A stretch of DNA of 64,000 bases from Flavobacteriales bacterium (GCA_963669295.1 OY769938.1:2286394-2350393); one strand, 5' to 3'. Shown: positions 28,231-48,177, counted from the first letter of the stretch. Translations and numbers: made by a program. Notes: generated from the sequence alone by a model not told the origin.

Positions 28231-28304
28231 GGGCCTATAGCTCAGCTGGTTAGAGCACCTGACTCATAATCAGGGGGTCCCAGGTTCGAGCCCTGGTGGG
28301 CCCA
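28231..28304 (+). tRNA. tRNA-Met (anticodon CAT), elongator-type; tRNA-Ile2(lysidine) not excluded
   Basis: Manual cloverleaf: GGGCCTA-TA-GCTC-AGCTGGTTA-GAGC-A-CCTGA-CTCATAA-TCAGG-GGGTC-CCAGG-TTCGAGC-CCTGG-TGGGCCC-A. 74 nt, no encoded CCA. Confidence 0.9.
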
Positions 28305-28319
28305 CACTTTACAAAAGCA

Positions 28320-28582: not shown

Positions 28583-28813
28583 ATGAGTAAAACCACTAGA
28601 AGAGAGCGTTTTGAGAAAGTAGCAGCGCGAAGAACACAGAATATTCTTGACTCACTCGATAGTCTTTCTAAGTGTAGTAACAGAAATAACTATGAATATT
28701 CTGAAGAGGACATAAAGAAAATGATAAGAGCGATTAGGGAAAAATTAACACAAACAGAATCAGCGTTTGATAATGAAATAAGTAAGTCAAAAAAAAACCA
28801 ATTTAAGTTTTAG
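28583..28813 (+). CDS. small basic hypothetical protein, partner of the GHKL ATPase
   Basis: 76 aa (MSKTTRRERFEKVAARRTQNIL...). Its stop TAG overlaps the GTG of the next ORF (TAGTG). The upstream part of the tracked ORF is low-complexity and was dropped. Confidence 0.5.
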   Translation: MSKTTRRERFEKVAARRTQNILDSLDSLSKCSNRNNYEYSEEDIKKMIRAIREKLTQTESAFDNEISKSKKNQFKF

Positions 28814-31290
28814 TGCCAATGGACAGTAAAGAGATCTTTTTAAAAATTTTCAATTCCAAAGATGAAATTGAATTGGGAGAGTTTATAGACAGTGAATCAA
28901 CTCTTTTTGATGATGATAATTGGAAACCACTTGGAGAAAATTATAGCAATTATGGTGTAGTTAAGAATCAACAATCTAATCCAATTGCAGCACTAATTGA
29001 AAAGGTGACTAATTCAATTGATGCTATTTTAACAAAACAGTGTTTGGAAAATGGAATAAACCCTAAATCAGATGAGGCTCCAAGATCTATGGAAGATGCT
29101 ATTAATCAATTCTTCCCTGATAATTCAAACTGGGACCTTCAGAGTTTTAGAAAGGCGCAATCAGAGAATATTCAGGTAATTGCAGATGGAAAAGGTCCTC
29201 GTACCCAAAAAAGGCAATATCCAACATCAGTTATTATTTATGATAATGGAGAAGGCCAACATCCAGAAGACTTTGAAAGAACCTTCTTATCGCTACTCCG
29301 TGGAAATAAAAACGACATTCATTTCGTGCAAGGAAAGTATAATATGGGTGGATCTGGCGCTATCGTCTTTTGTGGTAAAAGAAGGTATCAACTTATAGCA
29401 TCAAGGCGATATGATAAAACAGGAGACTTCGGCTATACACTGATTCGAGAACATCCAAAAAAAACAACAGATCAAGCGAAAGAGACTTGGTACGAATACT
29501 GGATTCCTGATGGCATTATTCCTTGTTTTAGCATTGGCACTATGGATCTAGGTCTAAGCAACAAGAAATTTGAAACAGGAACTTTGATCAAACTATACTC
29601 TTATCAATTCCCTAAAGGGTATTCTGGATTTGCACAAGATTTGAATCAAAGTATTAATGAATTTTTATTCTCGCCTGCTCTACCCATATTGACTAAAGAT
29701 ACTGCTGAAAGATATCCAAATAATAAAGTTCTTGAAAATGATCTATTTGGACTAAAAAGAAGATTACAGAAGGAAGAAGATGATTATCTAGATACAAAAT
29801 TCTCTGAAACCTACAATGATGATTTATTTGGAGAAATGAAAGTATCTTGTTTTGTCTTCAAGGTAAAAGTAAAGGAGTTTGACATAAAAAAAACTAGGGA
29901 AGAGATTCAAAGGAGATACTTCAAAAATAACATGAATGTATTGTTCTCAATGAATGGACAAGTTCATGGTTATTATACCTCTGAGTTTATTACTCGTTCT
30001 CTGAAATTAAACTTGCTTAAAAATCACCTTCTTATTCATGTCGATTGTACAAACATGAAATATGAGTTTCGAAAGGAACTATTTATGGCTTCTAGAGATA
30101 GGCTTAAAGATGGCGAAGAGACTCAACTATTAAGACAGTATCTAGCAAAAAAGCTTGGTGCAACTGGTGGTAGATTATCAGAAATTCAAAAATTGAGAAA
30201 GCAGGCCGTTAATGTAGATACTTCTTCAAATACAAGTCAGCTTATCAAAGACTTTACTAAGAATCTTCCGATTAATTCGGATCTAATGAAGTTACTTGGC
30301 GACACATTCAAACTTGATTTAAAAAAAGAGAAAAAAGCAAAGAAGGCAGACCCAAAAAAGCCATCTAAACAAAAAGAAGAAATTCCTTTTCAACCTGAAC
30401 GATTTCCTTCTCAATTCAAAATTAATTCTAAATCAAAAGGAGATACTGAAGTTGCCAAAATCCCCATTAACGGAGAAAAGACAATAAAATTTGACACGGA
30501 TGTTGAGAATGATTATTTCGACAGAACTAGCGAACCTGGAGAACTTAAGATAGGGGTCTTAAATATTAAATCGAATGATGTCACAGGAGGAACTGCTCCT
30601 GGAGAACCAAAAGAGATATCAGACATATTCAATGTAAATAAAAGTAGTCCTAACAAGGGAACTATAAAATTAAGTTTAAATCCAAAGGAGAAGTTAAGTG
30701 TAGGAGATGCTGTTCAGTTAAAAGTATCTCTAACAGCACCTGGAGGTGATTTTGATGAAATCTTTTGGGTCAAAATTACAGACCCTGAAAAAGCCAAGGA
30801 ACCTTCGCCAAAAGTTGAAGACGACAACGAACCATTAGGATTACCAAATATGATATTTGCATATCAGAATAAGGAAGGCAAGGATGAAAACGCTGTTGAT
30901 TGGGAAGCGGTTGGCAATGCTACTAGCCAAGAAATGGACATTAAAACAGTAATGGTCCCAGATGCTTCAGGAGATAATCTTAATGGTATTTATGTTAATA
31001 TGGATAGTGCTGTTCTAAAAAGCTTTCTTTCTAGATATAAGAATCCTAACTCTGAACAAATTCAAATAGCCAATAGAAAGTACTATACCTCCGTCTATTT
31101 CCATACATTGTTTCTCTATACAATCACAAAAAATCGAGGATATGAAATTCAAAGAAAGATGGAGCAAACCGACAAATATGATCATGTAGACATTGCAGAG
31201 TACCTAATGGACTTATTTGATCATTATTACTCAACTTTTATCTTAAATTTTGGTGGCATGGAAGAAATGATGCAGGGTATTGGAGACTAA
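28813..31290 (+). CDS. GHKL (Bergerat-fold) ATPase domain protein, MORC/MutL-like N-terminus, unknown C-terminal region
   Basis: N box EKVTNSIDA (28999-29025), G1 box IIYDNGEGQ, G2 box GKYNMGGSG. Lys-rich linker (KKEKKAKKADPKKPSKQK). 825 aa. Alternative ATG start at 28819. Confidence 0.65.
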   Translation: MPMDSKEIFLKIFNSKDEIELGEFIDSESTLFDDDNWKPLGENYSNYGVVKNQQSNPIAALIEKVTNSIDAILTKQCLENGINPKSDEAPRSMEDAINQFFPDNSNWDLQSFRKAQSENIQVIADGKGPRTQKRQYPTSVIIYDNGEGQHPEDFERTFLSLLRGNKNDIHFVQGKYNMGGSGAIVFCGKRRYQLIASRRYDKTGDFGYTLIREHPKKTTDQAKETWYEYWIPDGIIPCFSIGTMDLGLSNKKFETGTLIKLYSYQFPKGYSGFAQDLNQSINEFLFSPALPILTKDTAERYPNNKVLENDLFGLKRRLQKEEDDYLDTKFSETYNDDLFGEMKVSCFVFKVKVKEFDIKKTREEIQRRYFKNNMNVLFSMNGQVHGYYTSEFITRSLKLNLLKNHLLIHVDCTNMKYEFRKELFMASRDRLKDGEETQLLRQYLAKKLGATGGRLSEIQKLRKQAVNVDTSSNTSQLIKDFTKNLPINSDLMKLLGDTFKLDLKKEKKAKKADPKKPSKQKEEIPFQPERFPSQFKINSKSKGDTEVAKIPINGEKTIKFDTDVENDYFDRTSEPGELKIGVLNIKSNDVTGGTAPGEPKEISDIFNVNKSSPNKGTIKLSLNPKEKLSVGDAVQLKVSLTAPGGDFDEIFWVKITDPEKAKEPSPKVEDDNEPLGLPNMIFAYQNKEGKDENAVDWEAVGNATSQEMDIKTVMVPDASGDNLNGIYVNMDSAVLKSFLSRYKNPNSEQIQIANRKYYTSVYFHTLFLYTITKNRGYEIQRKMEQTDKYDHVDIAEYLMDLFDHYYSTFILNFGGMEEMMQGIGD

Positions 31291-31295
31291 AATGT

Positions 31296-32213
31296 CTATA
31301 TCTTATATACATTTTCTAAATCTTTACGATATGTCTTGATTTTGTCTAATAGGCTTATTGAATTTGCTTCCATATCGAATACATTATTAAAACTGTGGAT
31401 CAAATCAAAAATGCTTTTGTTCTTTCTTTTGTTTTGAGAAAAATAATCTTTGAGCTCATTTATTCCATTAAAGTCGTAATTGTGAAGTTTCGAAATTAAC
31501 ACGTTCAAATTTGTCATAAACGTTTTATTTCTGAGCAGTGATACCGATAGGGTTTCCCTCAGTCCTCTCAACTTCTTTTCCAATACCACCACCTCATGTG
31601 CATACTCTGAAAATAGGTTGCTTAATATACGATCAAGTTGCTTTCTCGTAAAATTATCATCTATTCTATAGAGTAGAACGAGCAAATCGGCAGTATCTTC
31701 TATGTGTCCAATTTGTTGGTGTAGATAAAATGAGGAGAATTGCTCCTTAGCTGGATAATCATCTGTATGAAAATAAAGTTTGGTTGGAACAAATCCGTTG
31801 GGATGATTTTTAGACAATTTATATCGACTCAAAAACAGCGATAATGCAGCCGAATAAAACTCCCCATTGCTTTTTGAATAGCCAGATAACTTTTGAACTG
31901 TTCTAAAAAAATCTTCACCAAATTCATATTGAATTTCGCTATCAAGTTTTTGATTACTCCTAAAAACATTCAGTACCTTATCGATTTCTTCTTTCCTCTC
32001 TCTGACCTGAGAATTATCATTCCCCTTTTTCGTACCATACTTATCAATTCTATCATACACATTAGCACATACTTCATTAAATACTTTCTGACATAAATAG
32101 AAATCAATATTCTTAAGTTTTTTAATCAGGAAATCGTCCTCATCAATATGAATTAAATTGATGACCGAACATGCATCTAAGACACAAGTTATTTGATTCA
32201 ATCCTCCTTCCAT
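31296..32213 (-). CDS. PIN-like nuclease domain protein (putative), last gene of the Ssp-like operon
   Basis: Acidic PIN-type positions read by eye: CVLDACSVINL (D13), VFNEV (E47), NGEFYSAALSL (E118), FHTDDYPA (D151/152). Its start overlaps the upstream ATPase gene by 16 nt. Confidence 0.4.
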   Translation of the reverse strand: MEGGLNQITCVLDACSVINLIHIDEDDFLIKKLKNIDFYLCQKVFNEVCANVYDRIDKYGTKKGNDNSQVRERKEEIDKVLNVFRSNQKLDSEIQYEFGEDFFRTVQKLSGYSKSNGEFYSAALSLFLSRYKLSKNHPNGFVPTKLYFHTDDYPAKEQFSSFYLHQQIGHIEDTADLLVLLYRIDDNFTRKQLDRILSNLFSEYAHEVVVLEKKLRGLRETLSVSLLRNKTFMTNLNVLISKLHNYDFNGINELKDYFSQNKRKNKSIFDLIHSFNNVFDMEANSISLLDKIKTYRKDLENVYKI

Positions 32214-33316
32214 CCAATTATTTCATCTTTATTATCTTCAAAAAATTCAATTTTAATTGGAGCATCAATCTCATCTAAATCAGCTAATTCTAATAGAAGT
32301 GAAAATGCCTCATTAAAAGAACGAAGGGAAGCATTACCTTTTTCTTCAATTACCTTATCAACCAATTTTTCATCAAAAGGAAAGTATTCATTTCCATCAT
32401 TCCCTTCTCGGTATGACTTGAGTAAATCCACTAAATACAGTTTAAATTGTTCTTCTGTCGGCAAATCAAATTCAATACGTTCTTTTATTCTTGATTTAAC
32501 GGCTTCAGTAAGATATTCCCCCAAATCCTCAAGACCAAATAAGGCAGTTTGAGTTAAGTTTAAAAACATTAATAAGTTATTTGGAGTATTATCTAATATT
32601 TCCCTCAAAAAATTATTTGTTTTATCAATGTTAGAACTACTTAATATAGCTAAATCTTCAAACTCATCAAACCAAATTATTACGGTTGAAAACACCTTTT
32701 TTTCAAATGTCAAGCATGTGAATATTCCTGCTAGAAGTTTTGTATAATCACTATCTGAATTTAATTGTCTTAGAATTCCATATTCATTCAAATCCTTTAA
32801 TTCTGTATTTGTAATATTTCCATACAAATACTTCTTTAATAATGAGATATCGCTCACATTTTCATCAAATATTGCCTTTAACACACTTGTTATTTGCATA
32901 TTATCGCTGATGTCCTCAATAAATGGTAGTACTTGGACATTAGCTTCTTTAAAAGATGAACGTATCTCCTCTATGTTTAACTTATCGATAACAGCAGTAT
33001 AGATGTTATACACAGGGTCCTTTCCTTTAGGTAGAGTTATTACCATTGAGTACGGTAATGATGAATCTAAACTATCTGAAAGGGATTTCAATTCAGATTG
33101 TTTATTGAAAAACCGTGCTGCATGTGTTTTTCCACTTCCATACTCTCCCCAATTTAATACTAAGCTAGAATTTGGGATTCGAATACTTCTCTTGATTCTC
33201 TTCTCGAACTTTTCTTTTGTTTCTGAAAATCCAGCCCAAACTAAATCTTCTGAACTAGTAGCTGGTGTTATTCTGAAAGGGTTCGTTTTTAACTTATACT
33301 TTTCTTTGAAACTCAT
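32198..33316 (-). CDS. AAA+/ORC-Cdc6-style P-loop ATPase (uncharacterised)
   Basis: Walker A GEYGSGKT, Walker B VIIWFDEFEDL. ATGA start/stop overlap with the upstream gene at 33313-33316. Confidence 0.6.
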   Translation of the reverse strand: MSFKEKYKLKTNPFRITPATSSEDLVWAGFSETKEKFEKRIKRSIRIPNSSLVLNWGEYGSGKTHAARFFNKQSELKSLSDSLDSSLPYSMVITLPKGKDPVYNIYTAVIDKLNIEEIRSSFKEANVQVLPFIEDISDNMQITSVLKAIFDENVSDISLLKKYLYGNITNTELKDLNEYGILRQLNSDSDYTKLLAGIFTCLTFEKKVFSTVIIWFDEFEDLAILSSSNIDKTNNFLREILDNTPNNLLMFLNLTQTALFGLEDLGEYLTEAVKSRIKERIEFDLPTEEQFKLYLVDLLKSYREGNDGNEYFPFDEKLVDKVIEEKGNASLRSFNEAFSLLLELADLDEIDAPIKIEFFEDNKDEIIGWKED

Positions 33317-34986
33317 TTTAATATTTTTTGAATGTACCCATCCCCATACTGTTTTTGAAACTTGTATATGAATAAATCTTGTTCTTTACTTTTTAGATAA
33401 TTTACTATGAATTGATGCCCTACTTTTATGTTGTGAGTTAAGTACAATTTGTACTTGGCATATGTAATCGCTTGAGACGCAGTAACTCGATTTGGTGCTA
33501 AGGTCTTAAAGTATTTAAAACTGTCCATGAGACATGAAATCGTATTAGACACAACTTCATTTTTAGATATTTCTGTCTTTTCACCATTATAAATATCATC
33601 ATACATATGTACCATGAAACGGTTTAAAAAATCATTTGGTGACACTACTCTGGACCAATTGATGTCATTCCAATAACAGATATGACTGAATAATTTCACC
33701 CCTTTATTAGAAAGCTTCAAATTCAATCTTAAATCAATTTCAATTAACTCTAAATCATACAGCCAGTTAAGTCGAGGCATAAGAACGTGTTCTAGATATA
33801 CCTCTGGATTCTTCCAGTTTTGAATTCTATCTATGATTCTCTTCAATTCTTTATATTCTGCACTGTTCTTCTCAAACCAAAATAAATCGCTTAATTGTTT
33901 TAGTCTTTTTAATAGTAATTGCTGAAATGATTTTAGAAGTATTTGAAAGCTAGATTTCCTATTGAGTTTTAAATGCTCCAGGATAATAGAAGTATATAAG
34001 AAATCTTCTCTTAAGATTGTTTCAAGAAAAAACAGCTTGTCCAGTTTTGCTAAAGCAAAAGCATTTTCCGACTTAACTCCTAACTCTTTATTTAATGCAC
34101 CAAATACCTTAAAAAGTTTCCCAGAAGAATAAACATTGTTTAAAAGATTCAGAAACCCAAGGTCTTTGGCTACCTCAATATATGGCGCAGCAGAAGTACC
34201 ATTCTTTGTTACCTTAATTAGTCCTTTGTCGTTCTTATACTGACCTAGTTGAGTTCTATATTCCTCAACAAATCTTTCAAACTTTTTATTAATAAAATTA
34301 GAGGGTACTTTTTCCTGTTCTTGTAGAAACTTGAGAAGGAGTTTGAAGTATCCAAGTCTTCGAACTTTTGTGTTTGTGTTGAGAATGGACAATCTTCGAT
34401 TATCAGGAATTTTCTCGTAATTTTTGTAGAATACCCAATAAAACTCCGGAGGAGTATAACTATCATTAGCGAACCTTAATTTATCAATAACTTCATTGTA
34501 GAAATTTGAATTTGAAATGTAAGAATCAGCTATATGTATCTCGAAAATATAGTTTGGTTCAGTATCACAAAACGCTGCGGCATCAAAATCTTCGTTATAT
34601 CCTTCATTTTGAGATACAAAATATTCTTTGACCGAATCTTGATCTATTTCTTGTATAATTTGAATTGCTTCATACATTTTATTACATATAGAAAATGGTT
34701 CCGAATAATCAATTATATCATTTCTATAGCCTAAGTATTCGCTAGAGCCTATATATGAAGCAGACGGTTCAAGTCTAGAAAACTCTTCAAGTTCTTTTTC
34801 TGAAAGACTTCTATAAAAGAGGTCTTCTTCTATTTGTTCTGAAGTCCCCGAAGGAAGATCAAATACTATTTCATACTCGGTAAAATCAAATAGTAACCTA
34901 TCATTCCGTAGAAGTGAAGTATCATTAGAAAACTGATTCAATATTTTATAAACCTCAATCATTTCTATACAAAACATGTAATACAA
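33313..34986 (-). CDS. hypothetical protein (about 550 aa, no recognisable motif)
   Basis: Long uninterrupted ORF. Candidate starts are TTG 34986, ATG 34977 or ATG 34962, all within or 2 nt from the SspD-like stop at 34965. Confidence 0.6.
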   Translation of the reverse strand: MYYMFCIEMIEVYKILNQFSNDTSLLRNDRLLFDFTEYEIVFDLPSGTSEQIEEDLFYRSLSEKELEEFSRLEPSASYIGSSEYLGYRNDIIDYSEPFSICNKMYEAIQIIQEIDQDSVKEYFVSQNEGYNEDFDAAAFCDTEPNYIFEIHIADSYISNSNFYNEVIDKLRFANDSYTPPEFYWVFYKNYEKIPDNRRLSILNTNTKVRRLGYFKLLLKFLQEQEKVPSNFINKKFERFVEEYRTQLGQYKNDKGLIKVTKNGTSAAPYIEVAKDLGFLNLLNNVYSSGKLFKVFGALNKELGVKSENAFALAKLDKLFFLETILREDFLYTSIILEHLKLNRKSSFQILLKSFQQLLLKRLKQLSDLFWFEKNSAEYKELKRIIDRIQNWKNPEVYLEHVLMPRLNWLYDLELIEIDLRLNLKLSNKGVKLFSHICYWNDINWSRVVSPNDFLNRFMVHMYDDIYNGEKTEISKNEVVSNTISCLMDSFKYFKTLAPNRVTASQAITYAKYKLYLTHNIKVGHQFIVNYLKSKEQDLFIYKFQKQYGDGYIQKILK

Positions 34987-36101
34987 CCTTCTTCTGTATC
35001 ATCTAAAATATCCAAAAGGAATTTTGAGCCTTTCGACTTTTCACGTCCTTTTCTATTCAAGTGCTCACGTTTAATAGATTCAATACGACTAGCCTCTTTT
35101 AACTCTTCAAGTGATTCATATTGGTTCCAAGTAAATGTCTCGTCAATATTCTCATAGTGCATCGCCTGTTCATACAAATCAGGGTGTTGTTCATACAACC
35201 ACACCCATTCAATTTTTTGCTGAAAAAAACAGAAGAAACAACCTGATCTGCTTCTTGCATACTCTCCTTTTTGCCCATCAACTTCATACTCTATTTTATT
35301 GTAGTATGCAGGAACTCCTACTCCACTTTCTTCAAGAATTCGAAAAATATCATCTCGCACTAGAATGTCTTCATTTTCAAGTAATGGAAAACTGTCTTCT
35401 ATAGACAAAGCATAATTGGTAGTCTTCAGAAAATCATAAATCACTCTATTCATTCCACTTATGGAAATATCAAGACAAGTATCGATTTTCTTATGTAGAT
35501 TCTTCTGTGCAACAATTCTTTCATTGAAATTAGTTGATACTTCAATGTCGAGCGCCTTTTTGAACTTATCAAGACTTTCTATTCCTTGTATGGTTTGAAA
35601 TAAATCTAATGCTTTTGATTGATTATCAGAATGAAAAAACTTCGTCCAAACATCCTCACTCCAAATGTTTCTTCGAAAAGGAAAAATTGATTGTATGTTC
35701 TCCTTTTTAGAAACATATCCTTCCCTACTTTCATCACCTCTAATACCCACATATGACACCGTAGGAGCTGTTCCAACATATTTTTCAAATGGCTGTAACT
35801 TCATCATGTTTGTACACCATCTAGCTTGAGGAGAAGGAAGGTAGCCTTTGAATATTTTATAGAAATAATCAAATGGGTTTTCCGAGCTTTTTTCAGCTTC
35901 TTCAGCAATAAGACGCTTTATCTTTTTCCCGAGATAAGACTCCAAATTGTCAATCAATTGATAAGTTTCATCAAGCTCTTTTCCAGTATCACAACAATAG
36001 TAGTCGAACTCTATTTGTGGATATTTATCTCGCAAATAAATTGCCAATGCTGCACTATCCTTTCCTCCTGATATTCCTAATACATGTCGGGCTTTACTCA
36101 T
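34965..36101 (-). CDS. PAPS reductase/PP-loop ATP pyrophosphatase family protein (SspD/DndC-like)
   Basis: PP-loop GISGGKDSAA, ARWCTNMMKLQP, C-terminal SRSGCFFCFFQ cysteine motif. 8-nt overlap with the upstream ATPase gene. Confidence 0.75.
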   Translation of the reverse strand: MSKARHVLGISGGKDSAALAIYLRDKYPQIEFDYYCCDTGKELDETYQLIDNLESYLGKKIKRLIAEEAEKSSENPFDYFYKIFKGYLPSPQARWCTNMMKLQPFEKYVGTAPTVSYVGIRGDESREGYVSKKENIQSIFPFRRNIWSEDVWTKFFHSDNQSKALDLFQTIQGIESLDKFKKALDIEVSTNFNERIVAQKNLHKKIDTCLDISISGMNRVIYDFLKTTNYALSIEDSFPLLENEDILVRDDIFRILEESGVGVPAYYNKIEYEVDGQKGEYARSRSGCFFCFFQQKIEWVWLYEQHPDLYEQAMHYENIDETFTWNQYESLEELKEASRIESIKREHLNRKGREKSKGSKFLLDILDDTEEGCITCFV

Positions 36102-39100
36102 TTTCTAATTCTCTTTTTAACAACTTGGCAAGTGCCATAATTTTCACACTCTTGTCTTTAGTTAACTCTTTGTCAAGTGCAGCAATTGCTTTATCAAGTT
36201 CTTTCTTTTTTGATTTATTCATTTTAACAACGACTCCCTTCATTCCAGAATCTCTTGTTGTAATGTCGAGCTTAAACGCTTCGTCATCATCATTTGTCAC
36301 CTCATCAATTTCAAGAAGGTTATCCAATTCTTTGAACATGTGTAATAGTTGGTCTTTGAGTACCTCTTCTTCTTGATCTTGAATATCAACCAATCGTTTT
36401 TTAAGAATTGCATGAGCGATTGATTCAATCCAACTGTTTCTATCATTTATAGGTGAATTCAACCTTAATAAGAAAGTTTTTTGATACTGCACCAATTTGT
36501 GTTCTTTAATTCCTTTGTACCTTTCTTGTAGAACAGATTTGTACTTTGAAAATCCTAGACTCTCATCAAGTATCTCGTCTACTATAAATTTTTCTATACG
36601 ATTCAATAATTCTGGGTACGCTCCTCTTATTTCAGTTATAGTTTCCTGAAACCTAATGATGTACTGCTCATAAGAGTCTTGTGATGTTGAAACGTCAATA
36701 CTTCTGAATTTAAGAGCCTCAGGAAAATCTTCAAAAAACACTTTTTCTGGATCTTCAGATTTAGCAATTGCAGTTCTTAGGTTTATTGCTTCACTAGAGA
36801 TTCTCTTTGTAATCTTCGAATATTGTGGGAGATTCTTATAGAGAGATATTATAGGTCCGATACATTCGATAAAAGACTTTACAGTCATTTTATCTTGCGA
36901 TTCAAGGTTTAATAATTCCCGATATTTATTAAACAATTTTATTCTAGCATCAGAAAGTTCAAAGGACTTGATTTCATACTCCTTTGGTGATCGAGATATT
37001 AAATGTAGTCTTGTCGCATCAATTTTTGGAATGAAGCCTTCATCCCCATATAACGCATAATCGCCCCGTTTAATAAAAAGAAACAAAGGCACCCAAAAGT
37101 CGACCAACCCTTTCTTTAATTTATAAGGCTTAGTTTCTAGTACCTTATATAACTCTGTGAGACTCTTTCTTTCCTCCCTACATTCCGATAAAAACCTTTC
37201 AGAAGCGTCCCATATTTCCCAAATAGGTGATTGTTGAGTTGGTGCACCTAACTCATATTTCCCTTTTATCTTATTATGGAGTCCAGTTTCCTTTAACAGA
37301 GAAATGTATATAGTTTTTTCTGCTGGAAATTTAGACTCAGGGAAATCTAAATCCTGTTTACTCCAATTATCCGAAACGGCTGAAAACAAATTCTTTCTTG
37401 CCGTGTGAATCGCAGTCGAAATTTTGTGCTTATTGAATAATTCATTTCTCAGTTTTGGAGTACCTGAATACACTTCTTCACATATTAATGATAGTTGTTG
37501 GTTTAATTTTCGAGAGGAATCGATTTGAAGAATTTTACCTCTCCAAACCCAAGATACTTTGTCCGCAAATAAAGCATCCTTGACGTAGTGATTCAGTAAA
37601 GATTTATGACTTTCTATTATGTTTTTAAGCTCTTTTCTAGCAACTAAATCATCATCATCTATATTTTGAAGTACTCTACTTGACTTTTCAATTTCAAACA
37701 AGGAATTTTTAATGTCACCAGCATTTTTGAAAAGACAGTAAATAATCGCTTCATCATGATTATTCGAAAATTCTTTTAACTTCTTTTCTGAAAGATCTTC
37801 ATTAAATACTAGGTTAATAAATCCATCAATCTCATCAACAGGGATATCTTGAGTTGGGTTTCGTGTTATCTTATATTCAAATAGTCTTGGTGTTCCAGTC
37901 TTATAGGAAAATGCTTTCGCCGTCAATATTGAGAATTCAAACGAATCTCTAAGTTTTGCAACAATATCAATATCATTCTCAACTTGGTTCTCAGCTTTTA
38001 ATAATGCTCCTTCTATGTCCAAATCAGTTCCTTCGAATAGCTTGTAAGAATCACTGAATTTATTGAAGCGGACTATTTGCAGCCTTGATAATTCGGATAT
38101 TACGCCTTTAGTATCACTCGATTGAGAGTTTCTTGTTATCTCCAGATATTCTTCGAGTAGACCATTGTCAATTATTGCTCCCTTATTAGCGAAAAGAGAT
38201 AGTAGTCCTACTGATTTAACAATAGAAAGGGCAAGTGATTGATTTTCCTCTATTCTGGCCTCAACCCTTTCAATTGAGGATCTAATACTTGCCCACTGAA
38301 TATAGTCTGGGTTATTGCGAGAAGACAGAAATGGATAGAAGTCCGCCCATAAATAGTCATAGACTTTGTCAATGCTGAAATAACTTTCAGTTTTACTATT
38401 CTCTCCAAATTTAGATAAAAATGAGAAGAGGGAACGTTCATTTTGACCATACCTCTGAAGAGATGCGGTGAGTATGAATGCAGATATTGGATCCAAGGGG
38501 TATAATCCATTAGAAATTCCTTCAAAGAATGTCTCACTAACCTTGAATAGCTTGTTGTTCTCAACTAATTTACCAATAGCATGACTACCATCCATTATCT
38601 GTACACCTAAATCCTCTGCTTGAAGTTTTTCAGATGCCAAGTACAATAACTGTTCTATTGGTTCGTTAAACGGCAACTCTTTAAATCGACCCTTTATTTT
38701 TCTCCATTCATTTCTCTCAATCTCACTTAAGTTAGAACCGTATGTATCGAAAGCTTGATGCAGGGTAGTAATAAAAAGTATATTTCGATTTGGGGAATTA
38801 ACAAACTCTGCCAATTGTTGAATAAAATAAAGCTCCCTTTCTGGATTATTCTTGACGGCATACTCAAGGAATTTCCCCATTTCATCAATCTGAATCACCA
38901 ACATTCCATTTTCCTCCCCTACTTCTTCATATTGTTGGTATATGGCATCAAAAAGTTCTTGATTACCTGAATGGGAACTTGAAACATTTAACACCTCGTG
39001 AAAATGCCCAATCATTGATTCATATACACCAACGATATTTATGAACTTTACATTCTCAACCTTATCGGGCAATGTCAAATCAAAGAGCTTTCTCTTATTA

Positions 39101-39300
39101 AGAATTGACTGCTCTATTGCCCATAGAAAAGAAGACTTACCTGTACCGTAAGAACCTATCAAATTGAATGAGTGAATCCCTTTCTTAAACTCATTAAAAA
39201 TGGTATAAATTGATTTCTGAGCATTGGGTGTTACAATATATTCTAACTGAGAATCTTCATCTCTTATAATGTTAACCGAAGGAGTATATCTATTTGCCAT
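36094..39300 (-). CDS. giant P-loop ATPase (SspC-like / BrxC-style)
   Basis: 1068 aa. Walker A GSYGTGKS (39133-39156), Walker B MLVIQIDEMGKF. 11-nt overlap with the upstream DUF4007-like gene. Confidence 0.6.
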   Translation of the reverse strand: MANRYTPSVNIIRDEDSQLEYIVTPNAQKSIYTIFNEFKKGIHSFNLIGSYGTGKSSFLWAIEQSILNKRKLFDLTLPDKVENVKFINIVGVYESMIGHFHEVLNVSSSHSGNQELFDAIYQQYEEVGEENGMLVIQIDEMGKFLEYAVKNNPERELYFIQQLAEFVNSPNRNILFITTLHQAFDTYGSNLSEIERNEWRKIKGRFKELPFNEPIEQLLYLASEKLQAEDLGVQIMDGSHAIGKLVENNKLFKVSETFFEGISNGLYPLDPISAFILTASLQRYGQNERSLFSFLSKFGENSKTESYFSIDKVYDYLWADFYPFLSSRNNPDYIQWASIRSSIERVEARIEENQSLALSIVKSVGLLSLFANKGAIIDNGLLEEYLEITRNSQSSDTKGVISELSRLQIVRFNKFSDSYKLFEGTDLDIEGALLKAENQVENDIDIVAKLRDSFEFSILTAKAFSYKTGTPRLFEYKITRNPTQDIPVDEIDGFINLVFNEDLSEKKLKEFSNNHDEAIIYCLFKNAGDIKNSLFEIEKSSRVLQNIDDDDLVARKELKNIIESHKSLLNHYVKDALFADKVSWVWRGKILQIDSSRKLNQQLSLICEEVYSGTPKLRNELFNKHKISTAIHTARKNLFSAVSDNWSKQDLDFPESKFPAEKTIYISLLKETGLHNKIKGKYELGAPTQQSPIWEIWDASERFLSECREERKSLTELYKVLETKPYKLKKGLVDFWVPLFLFIKRGDYALYGDEGFIPKIDATRLHLISRSPKEYEIKSFELSDARIKLFNKYRELLNLESQDKMTVKSFIECIGPIISLYKNLPQYSKITKRISSEAINLRTAIAKSEDPEKVFFEDFPEALKFRSIDVSTSQDSYEQYIIRFQETITEIRGAYPELLNRIEKFIVDEILDESLGFSKYKSVLQERYKGIKEHKLVQYQKTFLLRLNSPINDRNSWIESIAHAILKKRLVDIQDQEEEVLKDQLLHMFKELDNLLEIDEVTNDDDEAFKLDITTRDSGMKGVVVKMNKSKKKELDKAIAALDKELTKDKSVKIMALAKLLKRELENE

Positions 39301-40162
39301 AATACTTTTCTAAAACGTTAAACTTATTCGGTTTCCCATCCTTAAATTGAAGTTCTTTCACACCTGCATCATTTTTATAGACTATACCCTCAAACTCTTT
39401 TTCTATTTCTTGTAGAATCGATTCAAGGTTATCTTTATCAAAACAAAATACATTACCTGTACTTTCATGTGATTCAAACAAAGAACTAAAACTTATCGAA
39501 TCACCATAATCTTCATTATCAAGGATGGAATAAAGAACGATTTCCTTAGGTATCGATAACTGATTTCTATTCTCAATTCTATAAATGCTATTCTTAAGCT
39601 CATCTTTTCTAGCTAGTTCATGTAATAATCCAAGTTCTGTAAGCAACCCCGAATAACTTTCCTCAATATCTTTAGATGGTTTAGAAAAATACGTCCTAAC
39701 AAAAACAGAAAAATCTTTTTCTAACGTGTTTTCGTTTGCATTACCATCTTTTTCTAATGCTAAGGACTTAAAATGAAGCTTTGTGAATTCAGGTTTTAGC
39801 TTTCTCAGTTCTCCAAAAATGAGGTGATAAATTGATGCTCTCGATTTTGACTTTACGAGCGAGTAATGAAGTAACCATAAAGTTCCTTCGTCTTCCATAT
39901 ATGGATCATATCCATTATCCTGAAATATACTTGTTGCTAACTCACTGACTTGATCATAATCATCAAATAACCCAAATGCTCTCAGCCAATATCGAATTGA
40001 CCCAACCATATTTCTTCCAACGCCTAGCTTCATAACCGCCGAATCATTGAAACTAGCTTCTGATTCATTCGCATAATCAAAGCCTTTTTTTAACCAAAAA
40101 CTTCGACAGTGAAATGTCTCATGCCCAGAAAAATTGTAATTAACCTCGTTTCTCATCAACAT
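39290..40162 (-). CDS. DUF4007-like protein (SspB-like)
   Basis: 290 aa. The N-terminal FSGHETFHCRSFWLKKGFDY is, as I recall it, the DUF4007 signature. Its genomic partnership with PAPS reductase and a large ATPase fits that family. Confidence 0.55.
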   Translation of the reverse strand: MLMRNEVNYNFSGHETFHCRSFWLKKGFDYANESEASFNDSAVMKLGVGRNMVGSIRYWLRAFGLFDDYDQVSELATSIFQDNGYDPYMEDEGTLWLLHYSLVKSKSRASIYHLIFGELRKLKPEFTKLHFKSLALEKDGNANENTLEKDFSVFVRTYFSKPSKDIEESYSGLLTELGLLHELARKDELKNSIYRIENRNQLSIPKEIVLYSILDNEDYGDSISFSSLFESHESTGNVFCFDKDNLESILQEIEKEFEGIVYKNDAGVKELQFKDGKPNKFNVLEKYYGK

Positions 40163-40827: not shown

Positions 40828-40855
40828 AATTTGATTGGTCGTGTCTATACAAGAC

Positions 40856-42091
40856 ATGAAAAAAGAAATAAAAGCACATTTTATACTTCCTGAAAGTGGA
40901 TTTAGAAGAGTGATGAGTAGTCCTATGTCTAAGAAATCAAAAAGTAGAGACAAACTTCTTTTTGTTGTGAGTTCATTGTACTGTTATCAATACAAAAACT
41001 TCAACCCAGATTACAAAGGCTTCATTCCGTTACACTCTAGTATTTTAAAAAAGTTTTTGGGCAATCATTCCTACACATCTTTTATAAAAGAACTCATGAG
41101 ATTGGGGATGATCGAAAGGTCAGGATTGTATGTGCCATCACAAATTAGTCGTGGATATAGACTTAAAGAACCTTTTCGGTCTGATAAACCAATTTTGATA
41201 AAAGCTAAGGATAAGGTAATCACAAACAAACTTATCGCTACTAGGATTAGTGAAGAACAGCTTTTAACGGATGTAGATCGGTTTTTATTCAAAAACTTAA
41301 GGAGAATGTCATTCCGAGTTGAAGACGGCTTAGAACAGATTAAAACAGATTTAGAGATGAATGAAGCTTATACGCAATATCGCTTCAATTCTGATTTCGT
41401 TTCAATTGTAGAATTAGCAGATGAGAACTTTAGGTTCACACGAGATCAATTCGGAAATCGTGCTCATCATAATTTAACCAATATGCGCTCCTCATTAAAG
41501 AAGTTTTTGCGTGTTGATGGAATCGATGAATTAATAGGGCTGGATATTGCCAATTCTCAACCGTTTCTATTCAATGTAATTCTACGAAAAATGTACCCAT
41601 CCGAAATACCTAAAGATGTTGAACATTACATTAACCTTACGAGCAATGGAAACTTCTATTCGTATTTAAAAGAACACTTAAATAACAACAAAAGCATTAA
41701 GCAAATTAAGAAGGAGTTTTTTGGAAAGGTATTTTTCAGTCGAAACTTCATTTATGGTCGAAAAAATACTAATGAATATACACTACTGATGGAGCAACAT
41801 TTCCCTACAGTTTATAAAGCTATTTGGCATTGCAAAAGAAGAAATCACAAGGAGCTACCAAAGGCATTACAACAAGTAGAAAGTCATATAATAATTGATA
41901 CCGTAATTGAATCCGTTTCTACTAAGAACCCAAATGCATTTTGCATCACAATTCATGATGAGATTTTGACCACAATGGAGCACTTAAAATTGGTTGAAAA
42001 TAAGCTATTGGATGGGTTTGATCAATTTAGTCTCAAACCCTTGATACGACTGAGAAAATATAGTAATATATTTGCTAAAAAACTTGCATAA
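40856..42091 (+). CDS. compact protein with family-A DNA polymerase / T7-type polymerase-like palm motifs (putative replication protein)
   Basis: Residue numbers follow the 418-aa tracked ORF from 40835. Motif A-like GLDIANSQPFLF (D237). Motif B-like KEFFGKVFFSRNFIYG (Y307 G308) followed by HFPTVYKAIW. ALQQVESHIIID (compare PolA QGTAADIIK). Motif C-like CITIHDEILT (H374 D375 E376). Confidence 0.35.
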   Translation: MKKEIKAHFILPESGFRRVMSSPMSKKSKSRDKLLFVVSSLYCYQYKNFNPDYKGFIPLHSSILKKFLGNHSYTSFIKELMRLGMIERSGLYVPSQISRGYRLKEPFRSDKPILIKAKDKVITNKLIATRISEEQLLTDVDRFLFKNLRRMSFRVEDGLEQIKTDLEMNEAYTQYRFNSDFVSIVELADENFRFTRDQFGNRAHHNLTNMRSSLKKFLRVDGIDELIGLDIANSQPFLFNVILRKMYPSEIPKDVEHYINLTSNGNFYSYLKEHLNNNKSIKQIKKEFFGKVFFSRNFIYGRKNTNEYTLLMEQHFPTVYKAIWHCKRRNHKELPKALQQVESHIIIDTVIESVSTKNPNAFCITIHDEILTTMEHLKLVENKLLDGFDQFSLKPLIRLRKYSNIFAKKLA

Positions 42092-42566: not shown

Positions 42567-42896
42567 ATGATTACAGAAGAAAAAGAATTAGAAATCACAG
42601 TAGAAGAATTTATAAAGCTAGTCCCAGAGTGTTGTCCTCATTGTGTTGAGGAAATGTTTCCAGACTTAGTAATGTTACCCTTGGTATATGAAGATGCCAA
42701 ATTAGAAGACATTGTAAAAGAATTTAAAAAGGAATATTCAACCATAAGGAAAGTTGTAGAATATATGGGCGCAACTGTCTACTATGACAAAGATGGAAAC
42801 GAAGAAGATGTTGACCTTGGAGGACTTACAGAAGTAAGATGGGAATGCTCATCGTGTCAAGCAGTATTTGAAGATTATAAACCAGAAAACTATTAG
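42567..42896 (+). CDS. small acidic protein with putative CxxC...CxxC zinc ribbon
   Basis: 109 aa with CCPHC near the N-terminus and CSSC near the C-terminus. Confidence 0.5.
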   Translation: MITEEKELEITVEEFIKLVPECCPHCVEEMFPDLVMLPLVYEDAKLEDIVKEFKKEYSTIRKVVEYMGATVYYDKDGNEEDVDLGGLTEVRWECSSCQAVFEDYKPENY

Positions 42897-42898
42897 AA

Positions 42899-43294
42899 AT
42901 GAAAAATACAAAATATGAATTCGAGTATGAATCTGATATAATTCTAGAGGAAGAATTTACATTGATATTAGACTCATCAGAAATAGGTTATGAGAATCCG
43001 ACAATAGACCAAATTTCAGATTGGATTAAGGATAACTATAAAGCCGTGTTTAACCACGATAATGAGTACATAGTAGATTTCGATTATGTAGATGAAGTAT
43101 ACTGCAATCTTAAAAACTTTAAAGTGAGTGGAAAACAAATCGAAGGAGAGGTACTCGACAGAGATTATCGTTTAGGAGATAATGTTTGGGGGTTGCAAGA
43201 CTATGAAAGTCTTTGCCATAAAAACATATTTGGGTCAGGTAAACAATGTACTGACTTAGCAGATTATATTATAAATTCTTTATACCAATTGTAA
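42899..43294 (+). CDS. small acidic hypothetical protein
   Basis: 131 aa. Starts 2 nt after the previous stop. Confidence 0.5.
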   Translation: MKNTKYEFEYESDIILEEEFTLILDSSEIGYENPTIDQISDWIKDNYKAVFNHDNEYIVDFDYVDEVYCNLKNFKVSGKQIEGEVLDRDYRLGDNVWGLQDYESLCHKNIFGSGKQCTDLADYIINSLYQL

Positions 43295-43554
43295 TGAAAA
43301 TAGAAATTAAGATAACACCTAAACTTAGATACGAAAAACAGTTTAAATCAAAACTCGAATTCAAATATTTTGAAAAGGCTCAAAAAACGGCTGAAGTCAA
43401 AGGAATTAGCTTTTTGGACGAAGTAAAATACTTAACTAAGAATTATCCTTTCTTTATGAAGCATAATTGTATGGAAGCTGATAGATCTTCATTAGAAGAA
43501 AAAAGTGAATTAGTTGAAATTTATGAACTCGGTGATATAGAAATACTTAAATGA
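43294..43554 (+). CDS. small hypothetical protein
   Basis: 86 aa. 1-nt start/stop overlap with the previous ORF. Confidence 0.5.
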   Translation: MKIEIKITPKLRYEKQFKSKLEFKYFEKAQKTAEVKGISFLDEVKYLTKNYPFFMKHNCMEADRSSLEEKSELVEIYELGDIEILK

Positions 43555-43580
43555 ATCGAAACATACTAGGTTCTGAACTT

Positions 43581-43621
43581 AAAAAGCCAACTGACTGAAA
43601 AACTGTCGGTTGGCTTTTTTT
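43581..43621. terminator. bidirectional rho-independent terminator between convergent genes
   Basis: Stem AGCCAACTGAC / GTCGGTTGGCT (one G-T pair), flanked by A5 on the left and T7 on the right. Confidence 0.65.
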
Positions 43622-43650
43622 ATTTCTTTAGTGCACAAAAAATGAACTAA

Positions 43651-44349
43651 TTATGCATAAGAGTCAGCTAAATATTCACAGTACTTGTAAAAGGAAAAAT
43701 CTTCCGATCCATCTTTTCTGAATTCCTCTAGAGTTACCCCATACTGATCAGAAATCTTAACCCCACTCCATCTTATCATATTGTCAAGAGTTGTATCTAA
43801 TAATATCTCTGGAGCTTCAAGTTCTACCCCATAGAAATGATCAACATAAGAACTGTCTACATCCAAAAATTTATGCATCCACATAAAAAATTCAGTTGAA
43901 TTATATCCATAAGTTATTCCATCTAATGAAGGTTCTGGTAGAGGAACGTGGCTTGAATTTGCACTAAAAAACACATATAATACATTATAAGACAAATATT
44001 CCTCAAAGCTGTTGAAATGAGATTTGCAATTATTGTACTCAATTAAACATTGATCAAATTTTAAATATTCTTCACCCACTTCAGGTATGATAAAGACTTG
44101 AAGCTTTGAAATTTCGTTTAACAAATAGTTAGGATAGGTGAATTTCTGATTTAAGTCAATGATTTGATCTGACAGTTCATACATTTCAGCATTTTCTATT
44201 ATTCTTTCCAATTCTGACAATGTAACAAAAGAATCCAGCAATACTTTTGGATTCTTTTCAGCAATTATACTATCAATTTGTTTTTGAACGTATTCAACAA
44301 AAGTGTTTTTGCGAAGTTCAGAAGTTAAGTTTTCTATGTTCATAATCAT
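43651..44349 (-). CDS. hypothetical protein
   Basis: 232 aa. ATGA overlap with the upstream ORF at 44346-44349. Confidence 0.5.
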   Translation of the reverse strand: MIMNIENLTSELRKNTFVEYVQKQIDSIIAEKNPKVLLDSFVTLSELERIIENAEMYELSDQIIDLNQKFTYPNYLLNEISKLQVFIIPEVGEEYLKFDQCLIEYNNCKSHFNSFEEYLSYNVLYVFFSANSSHVPLPEPSLDGITYGYNSTEFFMWMHKFLDVDSSYVDHFYGVELEAPEILLDTTLDNMIRWSGVKISDQYGVTLEEFRKDGSEDFSFYKYCEYLADSYA

Positions 44350-44702
44350 GTACTTGCTTCTACCTCAAAACCTCCTGTTTTGGTCATTTGAGGATTTGTT
44401 TTTCCTACTTGATAAAGATACTCGGCACCATCATTACGAGAATCGTAGAAATCTGTCATACCGTTTTCGCAGTAATACAATTCGTAAAGAGCTTCTTTAT
44501 TCTCTTCTGAAAGGACATCTTCATTTTCATCTATGAAGCTATCTACATCATAAATTTCATTAGCAAGAAACTCAACTAAGCTTTGAGCATCTTCCCCTTT
44601 ATATTTGGGAGTGCATTTCTTTAGGTTATCAATATCAAATTCTTGTACTTCACTCGCTGAACTCATTTGATACACTTCAACCTTTCTTATTTGTACTTTC
44701 AT
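44346..44702 (-). CDS. small highly acidic hypothetical protein
   Basis: 118 aa, rich in D/E (DVDSFIDENEDVLSEENKEALYELYY). Confidence 0.5.
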   Translation of the reverse strand: MKVQIRKVEVYQMSSASEVQEFDIDNLKKCTPKYKGEDAQSLVEFLANEIYDVDSFIDENEDVLSEENKEALYELYYCENGMTDFYDSRNDGAEYLYQVGKTNPQMTKTGGFEVEAST

Positions 44703-44711
44703 ATTAGTTTT

Positions 44712-46226
44712 CTACTTTTTTGGTTTTACTTTAATGTCTTTAGTAGAGGTCAACTTGCCATAAGTGTAAACTTCCTTCTTATATTTTATACCATCTTCAT
44801 TATAGTGAATCCAAACCCCATTCATTTCATAAACTTTGTTTTTGCCAAAAGGATCATTTGGCGTAGGACCTGCCATTGGGTTTATCGCATAATTACTAGT
44901 CATTTTTAAATTGCCATTTTCATGATAGTCCTTCCATTGACCTGATTTCTGACCATTAGTTACCGATCCTTCTGACATTTTGTTACCATTTGGATAATAA
45001 TAAATACAAGGCCCATCAAGAGTTTCAGGATCAAGTGAAATCATCTTACCTTCAAATTGTAATTGTCCGTTAGAATAATAGTCTCTAACTGATTCATTTG
45101 AAATGCTTCCAGTTTGAGTAAATGTTATTACTCGATAGAATGAAGCTTCTCTTTTTGAATCTACCTCTTCCCAGTTTTCGTTATAATAGATCGTCCATTT
45201 TCCAACTCTGTACCCATTACTATATTTTAGATCACCATTCTTACTGCCATCTTCATTGTACGAAACCCAAATACCATCTCTATCTCCACGCTGATTCAAG
45301 CCACCTTCCAGAGACTTATTACCATTTTCATAATAAGAAATCATTGTACCTGAATACTGGCGACTACTACCTCCAGCTCTCCGATTTGATAATACCTCTG
45401 AATACTGCATTCTCGGGTTCCCATTTGGATAAAAAAGTGTTGTTTGAACATTCTGCTTCCCATTTGATATAGCTTCATACACTATTTTCTTTTCCATGTT
45501 GCCAAGACTGTCGTAATATACTTGCTCGCCTTCCATGATTTCTCCATACATATCACCTTTGGCGAAATTTTCTAAACTTTTTACCTTCCCATCAGCGTAC
45601 CAGATTGTCTTCTTGCCAAACCATTTTCCATTTTCCATTAAACCTTCTGCTAGCTTTGCCCCATCAGGGTACCATTCATTTATATCTCCATGATAAACTC
45701 CCTCTAGCATATTAAATTCTATCTTCTTTTGACCATTATCATACCAAGCTGTATTCTTACCTGTTATAGGATGTGCGGCCTCAATTTTAACTCCTTCAAG
45801 GTTGTACTTTTCATAATATGTCTTCTCGCCATTCTCATATTTCTCCATCAAAATCATTATTCTTTTACCTTCTTTACAACCATACTCATACCAAGTTCCT
45901 GATGGATTTCCTTTAGAATAGTTCTTTACTGAATAGGGAAGCTTTGCGCACTCACTGTCATCCTTCATTCCAATCCAAAACTCTTGTTTTCCATTAGCAA
46001 AACTGTTGCTAAATGTTGCTTTGGTTATCATCTTTCCATTTGAATCGAACTTCTTATAAGAACCATTCTTTTGTCCCTTTGAATTAACGAAATAGATTTC
46101 TTTGATTTTTGATTGTACTAATGGGTCGTAATATGTTCTTACTTCCTTTTGAGCCAATGCAAATGAAGCAGATAAAACGAAAAGAGAAACAGCGATAAAT
46201 GATTTCATAATTAATGAGTTTTTCAA
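44712..46226 (-). CDS. MORN-repeat-variant (YwqK family) secreted protein
   Basis: Signal peptide. More than 10 repeats of the W(Y/K)xxYxxNGxxxxEGxxxNGxxxG type (for example EWYPDGAKLAEGLMENGKWFGKKTIWYADGKVKS). Confidence 0.7.
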   Translation of the reverse strand: MKNSLIMKSFIAVSLFVLSASFALAQKEVRTYYDPLVQSKIKEIYFVNSKGQKNGSYKKFDSNGKMITKATFSNSFANGKQEFWIGMKDDSECAKLPYSVKNYSKGNPSGTWYEYGCKEGKRIMILMEKYENGEKTYYEKYNLEGVKIEAAHPITGKNTAWYDNGQKKIEFNMLEGVYHGDINEWYPDGAKLAEGLMENGKWFGKKTIWYADGKVKSLENFAKGDMYGEIMEGEQVYYDSLGNMEKKIVYEAISNGKQNVQTTLFYPNGNPRMQYSEVLSNRRAGGSSRQYSGTMISYYENGNKSLEGGLNQRGDRDGIWVSYNEDGSKNGDLKYSNGYRVGKWTIYYNENWEEVDSKREASFYRVITFTQTGSISNESVRDYYSNGQLQFEGKMISLDPETLDGPCIYYYPNGNKMSEGSVTNGQKSGQWKDYHENGNLKMTSNYAINPMAGPTPNDPFGKNKVYEMNGVWIHYNEDGIKYKKEVYTYGKLTSTKDIKVKPKK

Positions 46227-47958: not shown

Positions 47959-48177
47959 CTATTTACCTCTTTTGGTAGGCTTTTTTCTTAGATTAGGATA
48001 AGGGACTATTTTCTTTTTATCCTCACAGACTTCTTCAATGATTTTATGATTCAGTTTAACCAGTAGTTCGTTCTGTTCCTTTAGCAGTCTATTCTGCTCA
48101 CCAAGACTATCTAGATTAGCCAATTGTATCAAAATCACCTCTTCCATTTCTTCCTTGGTATATCTTAACTTACCCAT
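47959..48177 (-). CDS. small coiled-coil hypothetical protein
   Basis: 72 aa. 1-nt overlap with the upstream HTH gene. Confidence 0.45.
   Translation of the reverse strand: MGKLRYTKEEMEEVILIQLANLDSLGEQNRLLKEQNELLVKLNHKIIEEVCEDKKKIVPYPNLRKKPTKRGK

Follow-up and report, generated by a model that had tools for sequence, protein, structure and literature searches.

To our knowledge, few effector types are known in phosphorothioate (PT) defence, namely DndFGH, SspE, SspFGH, PbeABCD, DndI and TdpAB. In Ssp systems, PT is inserted into DNA by SspB, SspC and SspD, with SspB acting as the DNA-binding and nicking subunit. The complete SspABCD-SspFGH system has been described in Vibrio anguillarum FF-93 and Escherichia coli C10 (Wang et al. 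2021, PMC8092258). Of the 2,678 sspBCD loci considered in the same study, 7.3% were accompanied by sspFGH, 7.4% by sspE and 83.9% by neither, and its authors proposed "more diversified restriction counterparts" for the partnerless sspBCD. A 2026 paper on SspE cites DndFGH, SspE, SspFGH, DndI and Tdp alone as effectors.

Here, we analyse a stretch of 64,000 nucleotides (nt) from a Flavobacteriales bacterium (GCA_963669295.1, OY769938.1:2286394-2350393), hereafter the window, in which three uncharacterised genes (genes 4, 5 and 6, together the trio; 31296-34986) continue an sspBCD operon. We propose, with a probability of roughly two in three, that the trio and SspBCD are functionally coupled, with the trio acting as a defence effector. 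It is probably an undescribed effector type for the known class of PT restriction-modification systems and not a divergent form of SspE, SspFGH or DndFGH. As such, it would be a concrete and widespread candidate for the missing partner of orphan sspBCD loci. The searched literature holds no description of a PIN-containing, Ssp-embedded trio; subscription-only papers lay outside that search, and an earlier description is possible.

Layout of the Ssp gene cluster

Six open reading frames (ORFs) follow one another head to tail on the minus strand, in the order SspB, SspC, SspD, gene 4, gene 5 and gene 6:

39290-40162, minus strand: SspB, 290 amino acids (aa), DUF4007; first gene of the operon
36094-39300, minus strand: SspC, 1068 aa, BrxC-like ORC/Cdc6-clade ATPase
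34965-36101, minus strand: SspD, 378 aa, PAPS-reductase-type PP-loop sulfurtransferase
33313-34962, minus strand: gene 4 (X557), 549 aa from the ATG at 34962, predicted DNA-reading subunit
32198-33316, minus strand: gene 5 (X372), 372 aa, predicted stand-alone ORC/Cdc6-clade, BrxD-like AAA+ ATPase
31296-32213, minus strand: gene 6 (X305), 305 aa, predicted PIN-fold nuclease domain followed by a C-terminal helical domain

SspB overlaps SspC by 11 nt and SspC overlaps SspD by 8 nt; genes 4 and 5 meet in an ATGA stop/start overlap (33313-33316), and genes 5 and 6 share 16 nt (32198-32213). The initial annotation of this DNA had placed the three ORFs at 33313-34986, 32198-33316 and 31296-32213 on the minus strand, with start/stop coupling along the triplet; the coordinates are correct and the last two overlaps are real. 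It had also located the start of the first ORF 2 nt from or inside the stop of the SspD-like gene, and candidate starts of both kinds exist. The SspD stop codon, TAG, occupies 34965-34967, and an in-frame ATG at 34962 (549 aa) lies 2 nt beyond it; an ATG at 34977 (554 aa, the version held in the NCBI/ENA record of the protein) would overlap SspD by 13 nt and a TTG at 34986 (557 aa) by 22 nt. We favour the start at 34962, because the median gap from SspD to gene 4 is 3 nt in 37 homologous loci.

The upstream genes, described earlier as an SspBCD-like module, match true SspB, SspC and SspD. SspB is recognised by the PADLOC SspB model (E 1.1e-95) and, over its full length, by Pfam DUF4007 (E 3.4e-73). 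SspC matches the PADLOC SspC model over its full length (E 0, 1288 bits) and the BrxC model with an E of 1.7e-67; against Pfam it gives a weak AAA match alone (E 0.0045), and its translation contains the Walker A motif GSYGTGKS. SspD is matched by PADLOC SspD (E 1.4e-91) and Pfam PAPS_reduct (E 2.6e-10), carries the SGGKDS motif, and is 51% identical to SspD of E. coli C10 across the N-terminal 145 residues, which form the PP-loop half. By these matches, the modification module upstream of the trio is a genuine Ssp one. The window SspD exceeds that of E. coli by about 100 residues; an insert follows its PP-loop half, and the cysteine motifs CFFC and CITC lie near its C-terminus.

Predicted architecture of the trio proteins

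Gene 6 had been credited with PIN-like acidic positions, and a PIN fold had been expected in a structure prediction; both are borne out. The positions in question correspond to D13, E47, E118 and D151/D152. The AlphaFold model (predicted local distance difference test, pLDDT, 92.2) comprises a PIN domain at residues about 8-185 (31659-32192) and a helical C-terminal domain at residues 190-305. The top 12 Foldseek matches in the PDB are all PIN or VapC-type proteins (PAE0151, Pyrococcus VapC4, human SMG6/EST1A, mycobacterial VapC), with probabilities of 0.95-1.0 for the first eleven and template-modelling (TM) scores of 0.43-0.65 when normalised to the target; the highest-ranked reach a probability of 1.0 with TM scores of 0.62-0.65. 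Across 79 homologues, E47, N116, G117, E118, D151 and D152 are invariant, and D13, D173 and D176 are kept in at least 90%. D13 follows strand 1 (residues 9-12), E47 lies in the helix at 42-51, D151 and D152 come after strand 3 (146-149), and D173 and D176 after strand 4 (169-172). Most of the conserved residues of gene 6 thus occupy the positions of PIN catalytic residues in the model, and D13, E47, E118, D151, D152 and D176 are retained in a distant metagenomic relative of 211 aa that consists of the PIN part alone. Of the 79 relatives, 2 are matched by Pfam PIN (best E 5e-4), which leaves the window protein unmatched, one homologue is named "DUF4935 domain-containing" in UniRef, and the gene 6 profile retrieved nothing from the PDB sequences.

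Both Walker motifs noticed earlier in gene 5, GEYGSGKT (Walker A, 33125-33148) and IIWFDEFE (Walker B, 32657-32680), are present and invariant in its family. The invariant residues comprise G57-T64, D217, E218, N253, T255, R276 and R332, of which, from the sequence, N253/T255, R276 and R332 are candidates for sensor 1, the arginine finger and sensor 2, respectively. The assignment of this protein to the ORC/Cdc6-style AAA+ ATPases likewise stands. Pfam BrxC_BrxD (PF10923) matches 31 of 34 relatives (best E 1e-6) and AAA_22 matches 27 of them, PF10923 is precomputed on many homologues, and the best match of the gene 5 profile among PDB sequences is ORC4 (E 0.02). The window protein itself scores 19.1 bits against PF10923 (cut-off 22.2) and 18 bits against NCBIfam BrxD (cut-off 350), and against PADLOC it gives weak BrxD and IetA matches alone. 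On the strength of these family-wide matches, we assign gene 5 to the ORC/Cdc6-clade AAA+ family BrxC_BrxD. It is the best conserved member of the trio, at 53-71% identity. The relative found in a metagenome-assembled genome (MAG) labelled Clostridia (locus L033) carries an insert of about 75 residues. A paralogous relation of gene 5 to the ATPase core of SspC was also considered; hhalign aligns the two weakly (E 0.003, probability 10%), from Walker B through sensor 1 to the arginine finger, which only suggests a shared clade.

For gene 4, in which the initial annotation could name no motif, our searches concur: neither the protein nor its 89 relatives gave a consistent match in Pfam or PADLOC (HTH_45 of Pfam matches 3 of the 89), and NCBIfam gave no match. 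The AlphaFold model (pLDDT 93.3, predicted TM score 0.93) contains an alpha/beta N-terminal domain at residues 1-181 (about 34420-34962), and residues 204-546 (about 33325-34353) form three helix-helix-helix-beta-hairpin, winged-helix-like modules, bounded at about 204-294, 306-417 and 419-546. Foldseek yielded weak matches to the nickase N.BspD6I (probability 0.63), PadR, AphA, FOXM1 and a phage protein labelled FokI-like; the profile of the short-form relatives matched Sso10a among PDB sequences (E 0.019), and that of the gene 4 family matched nothing there. Since the weak matches converge on winged-helix and FokI-type recognition domains, we infer that gene 4 is a multi-winged-helix DNA reader, a well-motivated view in which the fold assignment is only suggestive. 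The protein had been cast as an adaptor; given its N-terminal domain and three winged-helix-like modules, a place beside the ATPase and the nuclease as a DNA-binding reader is more likely. The family comprises 390 clusters at 50% identity, and many relatives (about 365 aa) lack the N-terminal domain, which makes the winged-helix part the family core. A view of gene 4 as a paralogue of SspB (DUF4007) is not supported, hhalign with family alignments and with broader ones giving a local winged-helix-like match alone (E 0.016-0.025, probability 2-3%). No gene 4 match was found in mobile elements, either by tblastn against PLSDB plasmids and INPHARED phages or in a scan of IMG/VR.

Gene orders elsewhere and the surrounding island

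Scanning one genome per GTDB species with two gene 4 peptide patterns yielded 41 loci, and in 37 of them SspB, SspC, SspD, gene 4, gene 5 and gene 6 follow in this order on one strand (2 of the 37 contigs stop short of SspB). The estimated junctions SspD/gene 4, gene 4/gene 5 and gene 5/gene 6 have medians of 3, 2.5 and 1 nt, and 89-97% of them measure 20 nt or less. Most carriers belong to the Bacteroidota, including Flavobacterium, Chryseobacterium, Pedobacter, Algoriphagus, Dyadobacter, Cyclobacterium, Saprospiraceae and Elizabethkingia, as well as Bacteroides, Prevotella, Phocaeicola, Parabacteroides, Coprobacter and Paludibacteraceae, gut genera among them. Beyond this phylum, the trio occurs in Gracilimonas, in a member of the Melioribacteraceae, in one of the Desulfococcaceae and in the MAG labelled Clostridia. 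The four exceptions to the common order are locus L033 in the MAG labelled Clostridia (described below), a locus cut by a contig end, the Desulfococcaceae trio, which lies beside convergent SspB and SspC genes of a different type, and a Bacteroides sp. MAG (L041, 3749-12845), where the SspC-SspD-trio cluster is fragmented into several ORFs, reflecting either a decaying copy or assembly errors. Two carriers are listed without SspE and SspFGH in Table S2 of PMC8092258: in the locus of Flavobacterium chilense LMG 26360 (NZ_LSYT01000006.1), our L004, the trio is complete, and in Filimonas lacunae (AP017422.1) at least genes 4 and 5 have homologues.

A second scan, of metagenomes, was seeded with short-form gene 4 relatives (a 7-sequence alignment) and added 36 loci, whose layouts were read with hidden Markov models built from our own alignments. 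In one arrangement (variant B), a long PAPS reductase, the short gene 4 core, a PIN protein (about 240 aa), an ATPase (about 410 aa), SspB and SspC all abut in this order. Eight loci contain it in full; in a further 4, truncated by contig ends, the trio is followed by SspB and/or SspC. The variant-B reductases, of about 575-620 aa (e.g., L068, 8216-9982), combine the SGGKDS PP-loop with a C-terminal cysteine motif of the ferredoxin/4Fe-4S type. Variant C has the order SspB, SspC, SspD, short core, (PIN), ATPase and is whole in 3 loci; a fourth is cut at SspD, and the PIN gene was detected there. The co-occurrence of the triplet with Ssp genes in other genomes, on which the initial annotation had staked its proposal, is therefore found in 37 of the 41 genome loci and in at least three operon layouts. 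As the three protein families accompany Ssp genes in three gene orders and in lineages far apart, chance adjacency is hard to uphold.

Several metagenome loci differ individually. Downstream of the variant-B operon with its trio in L057, positions 10956-13864 encode proteins homologous to SspF (E 2e-24) and to SspG (E 5e-9); the trio and SspF/SspG sets can therefore coexist, which recalls the published coexistence of SspE and SspFGH. L045 (217-7115) holds a compact, rearranged trio consisting of a 362-aa short core, a 211-aa PIN-only protein and a 389-aa ATPase. Ahead of these lie another, 564-aa HATPase_c_3 protein, two unknown ORFs and a fragment similar to the SspD C-terminus. In L049, the ATPase is encoded on the other strand, and a PAPS-reductase-like ORF comes next.

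In the window, the Ssp cluster sits in a low-GC island of about 22 kb (0.30-0.35 GC vs 0.39-0.46 outside). The features at its borders and beside gene 6 are:

28231-28305: tRNA-Met gene; the island begins just after it
28813-31290, plus strand: X825, 825 aa, GHKL-type ATPase; convergent with gene 6 and ending 5 nt from it
48177-48629: HTH_17 excisionase-like gene, near the island end
48635-49861: tyrosine integrase gene, near the island end

No convincing att-type direct repeat flanking the island was found. Apart from the genes discussed here, 0 of 9 other island ORFs tested were conserved near homologous Ssp clusters, and no further effector was recognisable among 8 ORFs compared with PADLOC and Pfam and 10 more compared with Pfam. 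ORFs of 418, 109, 131, 232, 118 and 403 aa (40835-42091, plus strand; 42567-44702; 46326-47537) have no Pfam match, and no relatives of them were seen near homologous Ssp clusters. A 504-aa ORF at 44712-46226 resembles a MORN-repeat lipoprotein.

In 6 of the 41 genome loci and in 3 of the 4 variant-C metagenome loci, an X825 homologue with 54-76% identity lies immediately beside the six-gene cluster. Pfam HATPase_c_3 matches 7 of 7 homologues weakly, and the motifs DNGEGQ and GKYNMGGSG are invariant; the protein has no match in PADLOC or among PDB sequences. Relatives were located in L003, L006, L010, L021, L025, L035, L047, L083, L085 and L086, and in L047 an X825 fragment adjoins the short-form gene 4 core. 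We regard X825 as either a possible seventh, optional component or a frequent neighbour.

Proposed function, alternatives and known effectors

We envisage the window cluster as a PT restriction-modification system of six genes in a single operon. SspB, SspC and SspD, together with a housekeeping cysteine desulfurase acting in trans, would put PT into host DNA. Gene 4 would bind DNA through its winged-helix modules and read the site or its PT state; gene 5, by analogy with its family, could oligomerise on DNA or load the complex, coupling ATP hydrolysis to scanning or licensing; and the PIN nuclease of gene 6, predicted from the modelled fold and conserved acidic residues, would damage the invader. 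The initial annotation had named the trio a PT-sensing effector. We retain the Ssp-linked effector; PT sensing, by contrast, is one of two logics, since the trio might be activated by PT, as SspE is, or might attack DNA that lacks it, as SspFGH and DndFGH do. The latter seems slightly more likely. We favour it mildly because overlapping junctions bind the trio into the modification operon, or even enclose it there, as is expected of something harmful on its own.

More tentatively, the locus could consist of two parallel three-part machines, each combining an enzyme with an ORC/Cdc6-type ATPase and a DNA reader of several winged helices, with SspBCD writing the mark and genes 4-6 checking the same sites and cutting where it is missing. 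Should this speculative arrangement be true, gene 6 would be the first PIN-fold restriction nuclease to discriminate a DNA backbone modification, and the module would explain much of the orphan SspBCD class, including that of human gut Bacteroidales.

Several points weigh against an Ssp-coupled effector. The trio proteins are known here from sequence and predicted structure alone, and the winged-helix assignment of gene 4 depends on the pattern of secondary structure and on sub-significant matches, none of its Foldseek matches having reached E 0.001. All loci were retrieved via gene 4, and counts such as 37 of 41 are silent on SspBCD loci without the trio. In the MAG labelled Clostridia (L033, 9860-13715), the trio is solitary, with no Ssp gene within 10 kb and with housekeeping genes (GatE/GatD, aldehyde dehydrogenase, cytochrome c) as neighbours; in the metagenome contigs L073, L075 and L081, no Ssp gene was seen in several kb of flank. 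The variant-B position between the PAPS reductase and SspB-SspC fits a modification role equally well. Furthermore, most PIN domains act as RNases or as structure-specific nucleases and not as classical restriction endonucleases.

This last point is also the starting point of the best-surviving alternative, in which the trio would be a co-transcribed backup or abortive-infection module: the ATPase and the winged-helix protein would sense infection or failure of the main system, and the PIN domain, typical of endoRNases, would then cleave tRNA, rRNA or mRNA to halt the cell, with no reading of PT. PIN endoRNases beside PT and BREX modification genes have indeed been proposed as suicide backups (PMC10853773, PMC12839542), and the solitary trio of L033 agrees with such autonomy. 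However, the proposed backup nucleases lie at system boundaries, often on the opposite strand (PMC10853773), whereas the trio is joined to Ssp genes by overlapping or nearly abutting junctions and in one layout stands between them. Moreover, a backup would leave about 37 genomes without a primary effector, and a partner with three winged helices suggests engagement of DNA rather than RNA. We consider this explanation unlikely.

Less probable still is a place on the modification side, where the trio would serve as a site-selection, regulatory or nick-processing unit, for example with a PIN/FEN-like domain processing the SspB nick. Besides the variant-B gene order, this has in its favour that the trio mirrors the make-up of SspB-SspC, a DNA-binding winged-helix protein with an ORC/Cdc6-type ATPase, and that the gene 5 family shows the weak hhalign match to SspC (E 0.003). 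Yet SspBCD with IscS modifies DNA in Vibrio and E. coli without such genes (PMC8092258), and nearly all gut isolates with the C-PS-C PT dinucleotide have sspBCD with or without sspE (PMC12914056). In addition, the trio moves as a unit and may stand alone, as is typical of an exchangeable effector module, and the similarity of gene 4 to SspB is not significant (probability about 2%).

Finally, we compared the trio with the known effectors, of which the initial annotation had seen no signature. As a reference, we used the sspBCD-sspFGH locus of E. coli C10 (Table S2 of PMC8092258), whose ATPase SspF, SspG and SspH, the last with an FtsK/HerA-like C-terminus, measure 605, 510 and 1794 aa. The PADLOC models for SspF, SspG and SspH recognise these proteins (E 5e-220, 3e-203 and 0), so the library, in the 2023 version used, which lacks the trio, holds working models. 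The same models, at E 1e-200 or better on genuine SspFGH, and that for SspE matched none of the trio proteins, the 89 gene 4 relatives or the 79 gene 6 relatives. Comparing the trio with SspF, SspG and SspH of E. coli C10 by BLASTP, phmmer and hhalign gave a bare P-loop match alone (hhalign probability <1%). For SspE, no DUF262, DUF1524 or PADLOC SspE match was present in the 8 ORFs searched with PADLOC and Pfam, nor any DUF262 or DUF1524 domain in the 10 further island ORFs. NCBIfam and PADLOC, both of which presumably contain DptFGH models, gave no DndFGH/DptFGH match from the trio (E 0.1 and 0.01, respectively), whose largest protein has 549 aa, and none of the PT-restriction families of NCBIfam was matched. 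A highly divergent SspFGH, SspE, DndFGH or PbeABCD is hence scarcely credible: as with SspFGH, a three-gene cassette with one Walker A member lies beside sspBCD, but its proteins of 549, 372 and 305 aa contrast with the 605, 510 and 1794 aa of SspF, SspG and SspH, none has an FtsK/HerA domain, and both sets of relatives escape the profiles.

If the trio is an Ssp-coupled effector, it represents a new, compact effector architecture composed of an ORC-type ATPase, a PIN nuclease and a winged-helix reader. Defence annotation would improve, since PADLOC-like tools would call such loci incomplete, and the cluster would provide a small, tractable system for studying how a protein complex tells sulfur from oxygen on the DNA backbone.

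Set against the described systems, the trio differs from PbeABCD, an archaeal PT-dependent four-gene cassette (pbeA-D) paired with dndCDEA, by description, in gene number and in being paired with Ssp instead of Dnd. SspE likewise directly follows sspBCD and is PT-dependent, but consists of one protein, N-terminally DUF262 and C-terminally DUF1524/HNH-like, that acts as a GTPase and a nickase. With BrxD of type 2 BREX, gene 5 shares the Pfam family (PF10923), a similar size and the character of a stand-alone ORC/Cdc6-clade ATPase; the matches are weak, however, and the partner of BrxD is the helicase BrxHI, not a PIN protein. Like SspFGH, the trio is a three-gene cassette beside sspBCD with one P-loop ATPase, and both are proposed restriction arms of single-strand PT modification. 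Unlike SspFGH, it has far smaller proteins with no detectable sequence or profile similarity, lacks an FtsK/HerA translocase, uses a PIN domain as its predicted nuclease and continues the sspBCD operon, whereas sspFGH is convergent with sspBCD in E. coli C10. DndFGH (DptFGH), which is toxic without modification (PMC8092258, PMC10853773), is also a PT-coupled restriction complex, built from the ATPase DndF, the triple winged-helix DNA-binding protein DndG and a catalytic subunit, but it pairs with the double-strand Dnd modification, and DndH is a giant protein combining helicase, FtsK and restriction endonuclease (REase) parts.

The closest published concept comes from Rakesh, Aravind and Krishnan (2024, PMC10853773), who describe mobile operons in which an Orc/Cdc6 ATPase is joined by a DndG-like triple winged-helix protein and an REase-ASCH nuclease. 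By description, the trio is set apart from them, as their nuclease has an REase fold fused to ASCH, not a PIN domain, and they are not described as Ssp-embedded. The combination is nevertheless presented as a theme in defence, and the same authors show a triple winged-helix module to be common to DndG, SspB and the recognition domain of FokI (PMC10853773).

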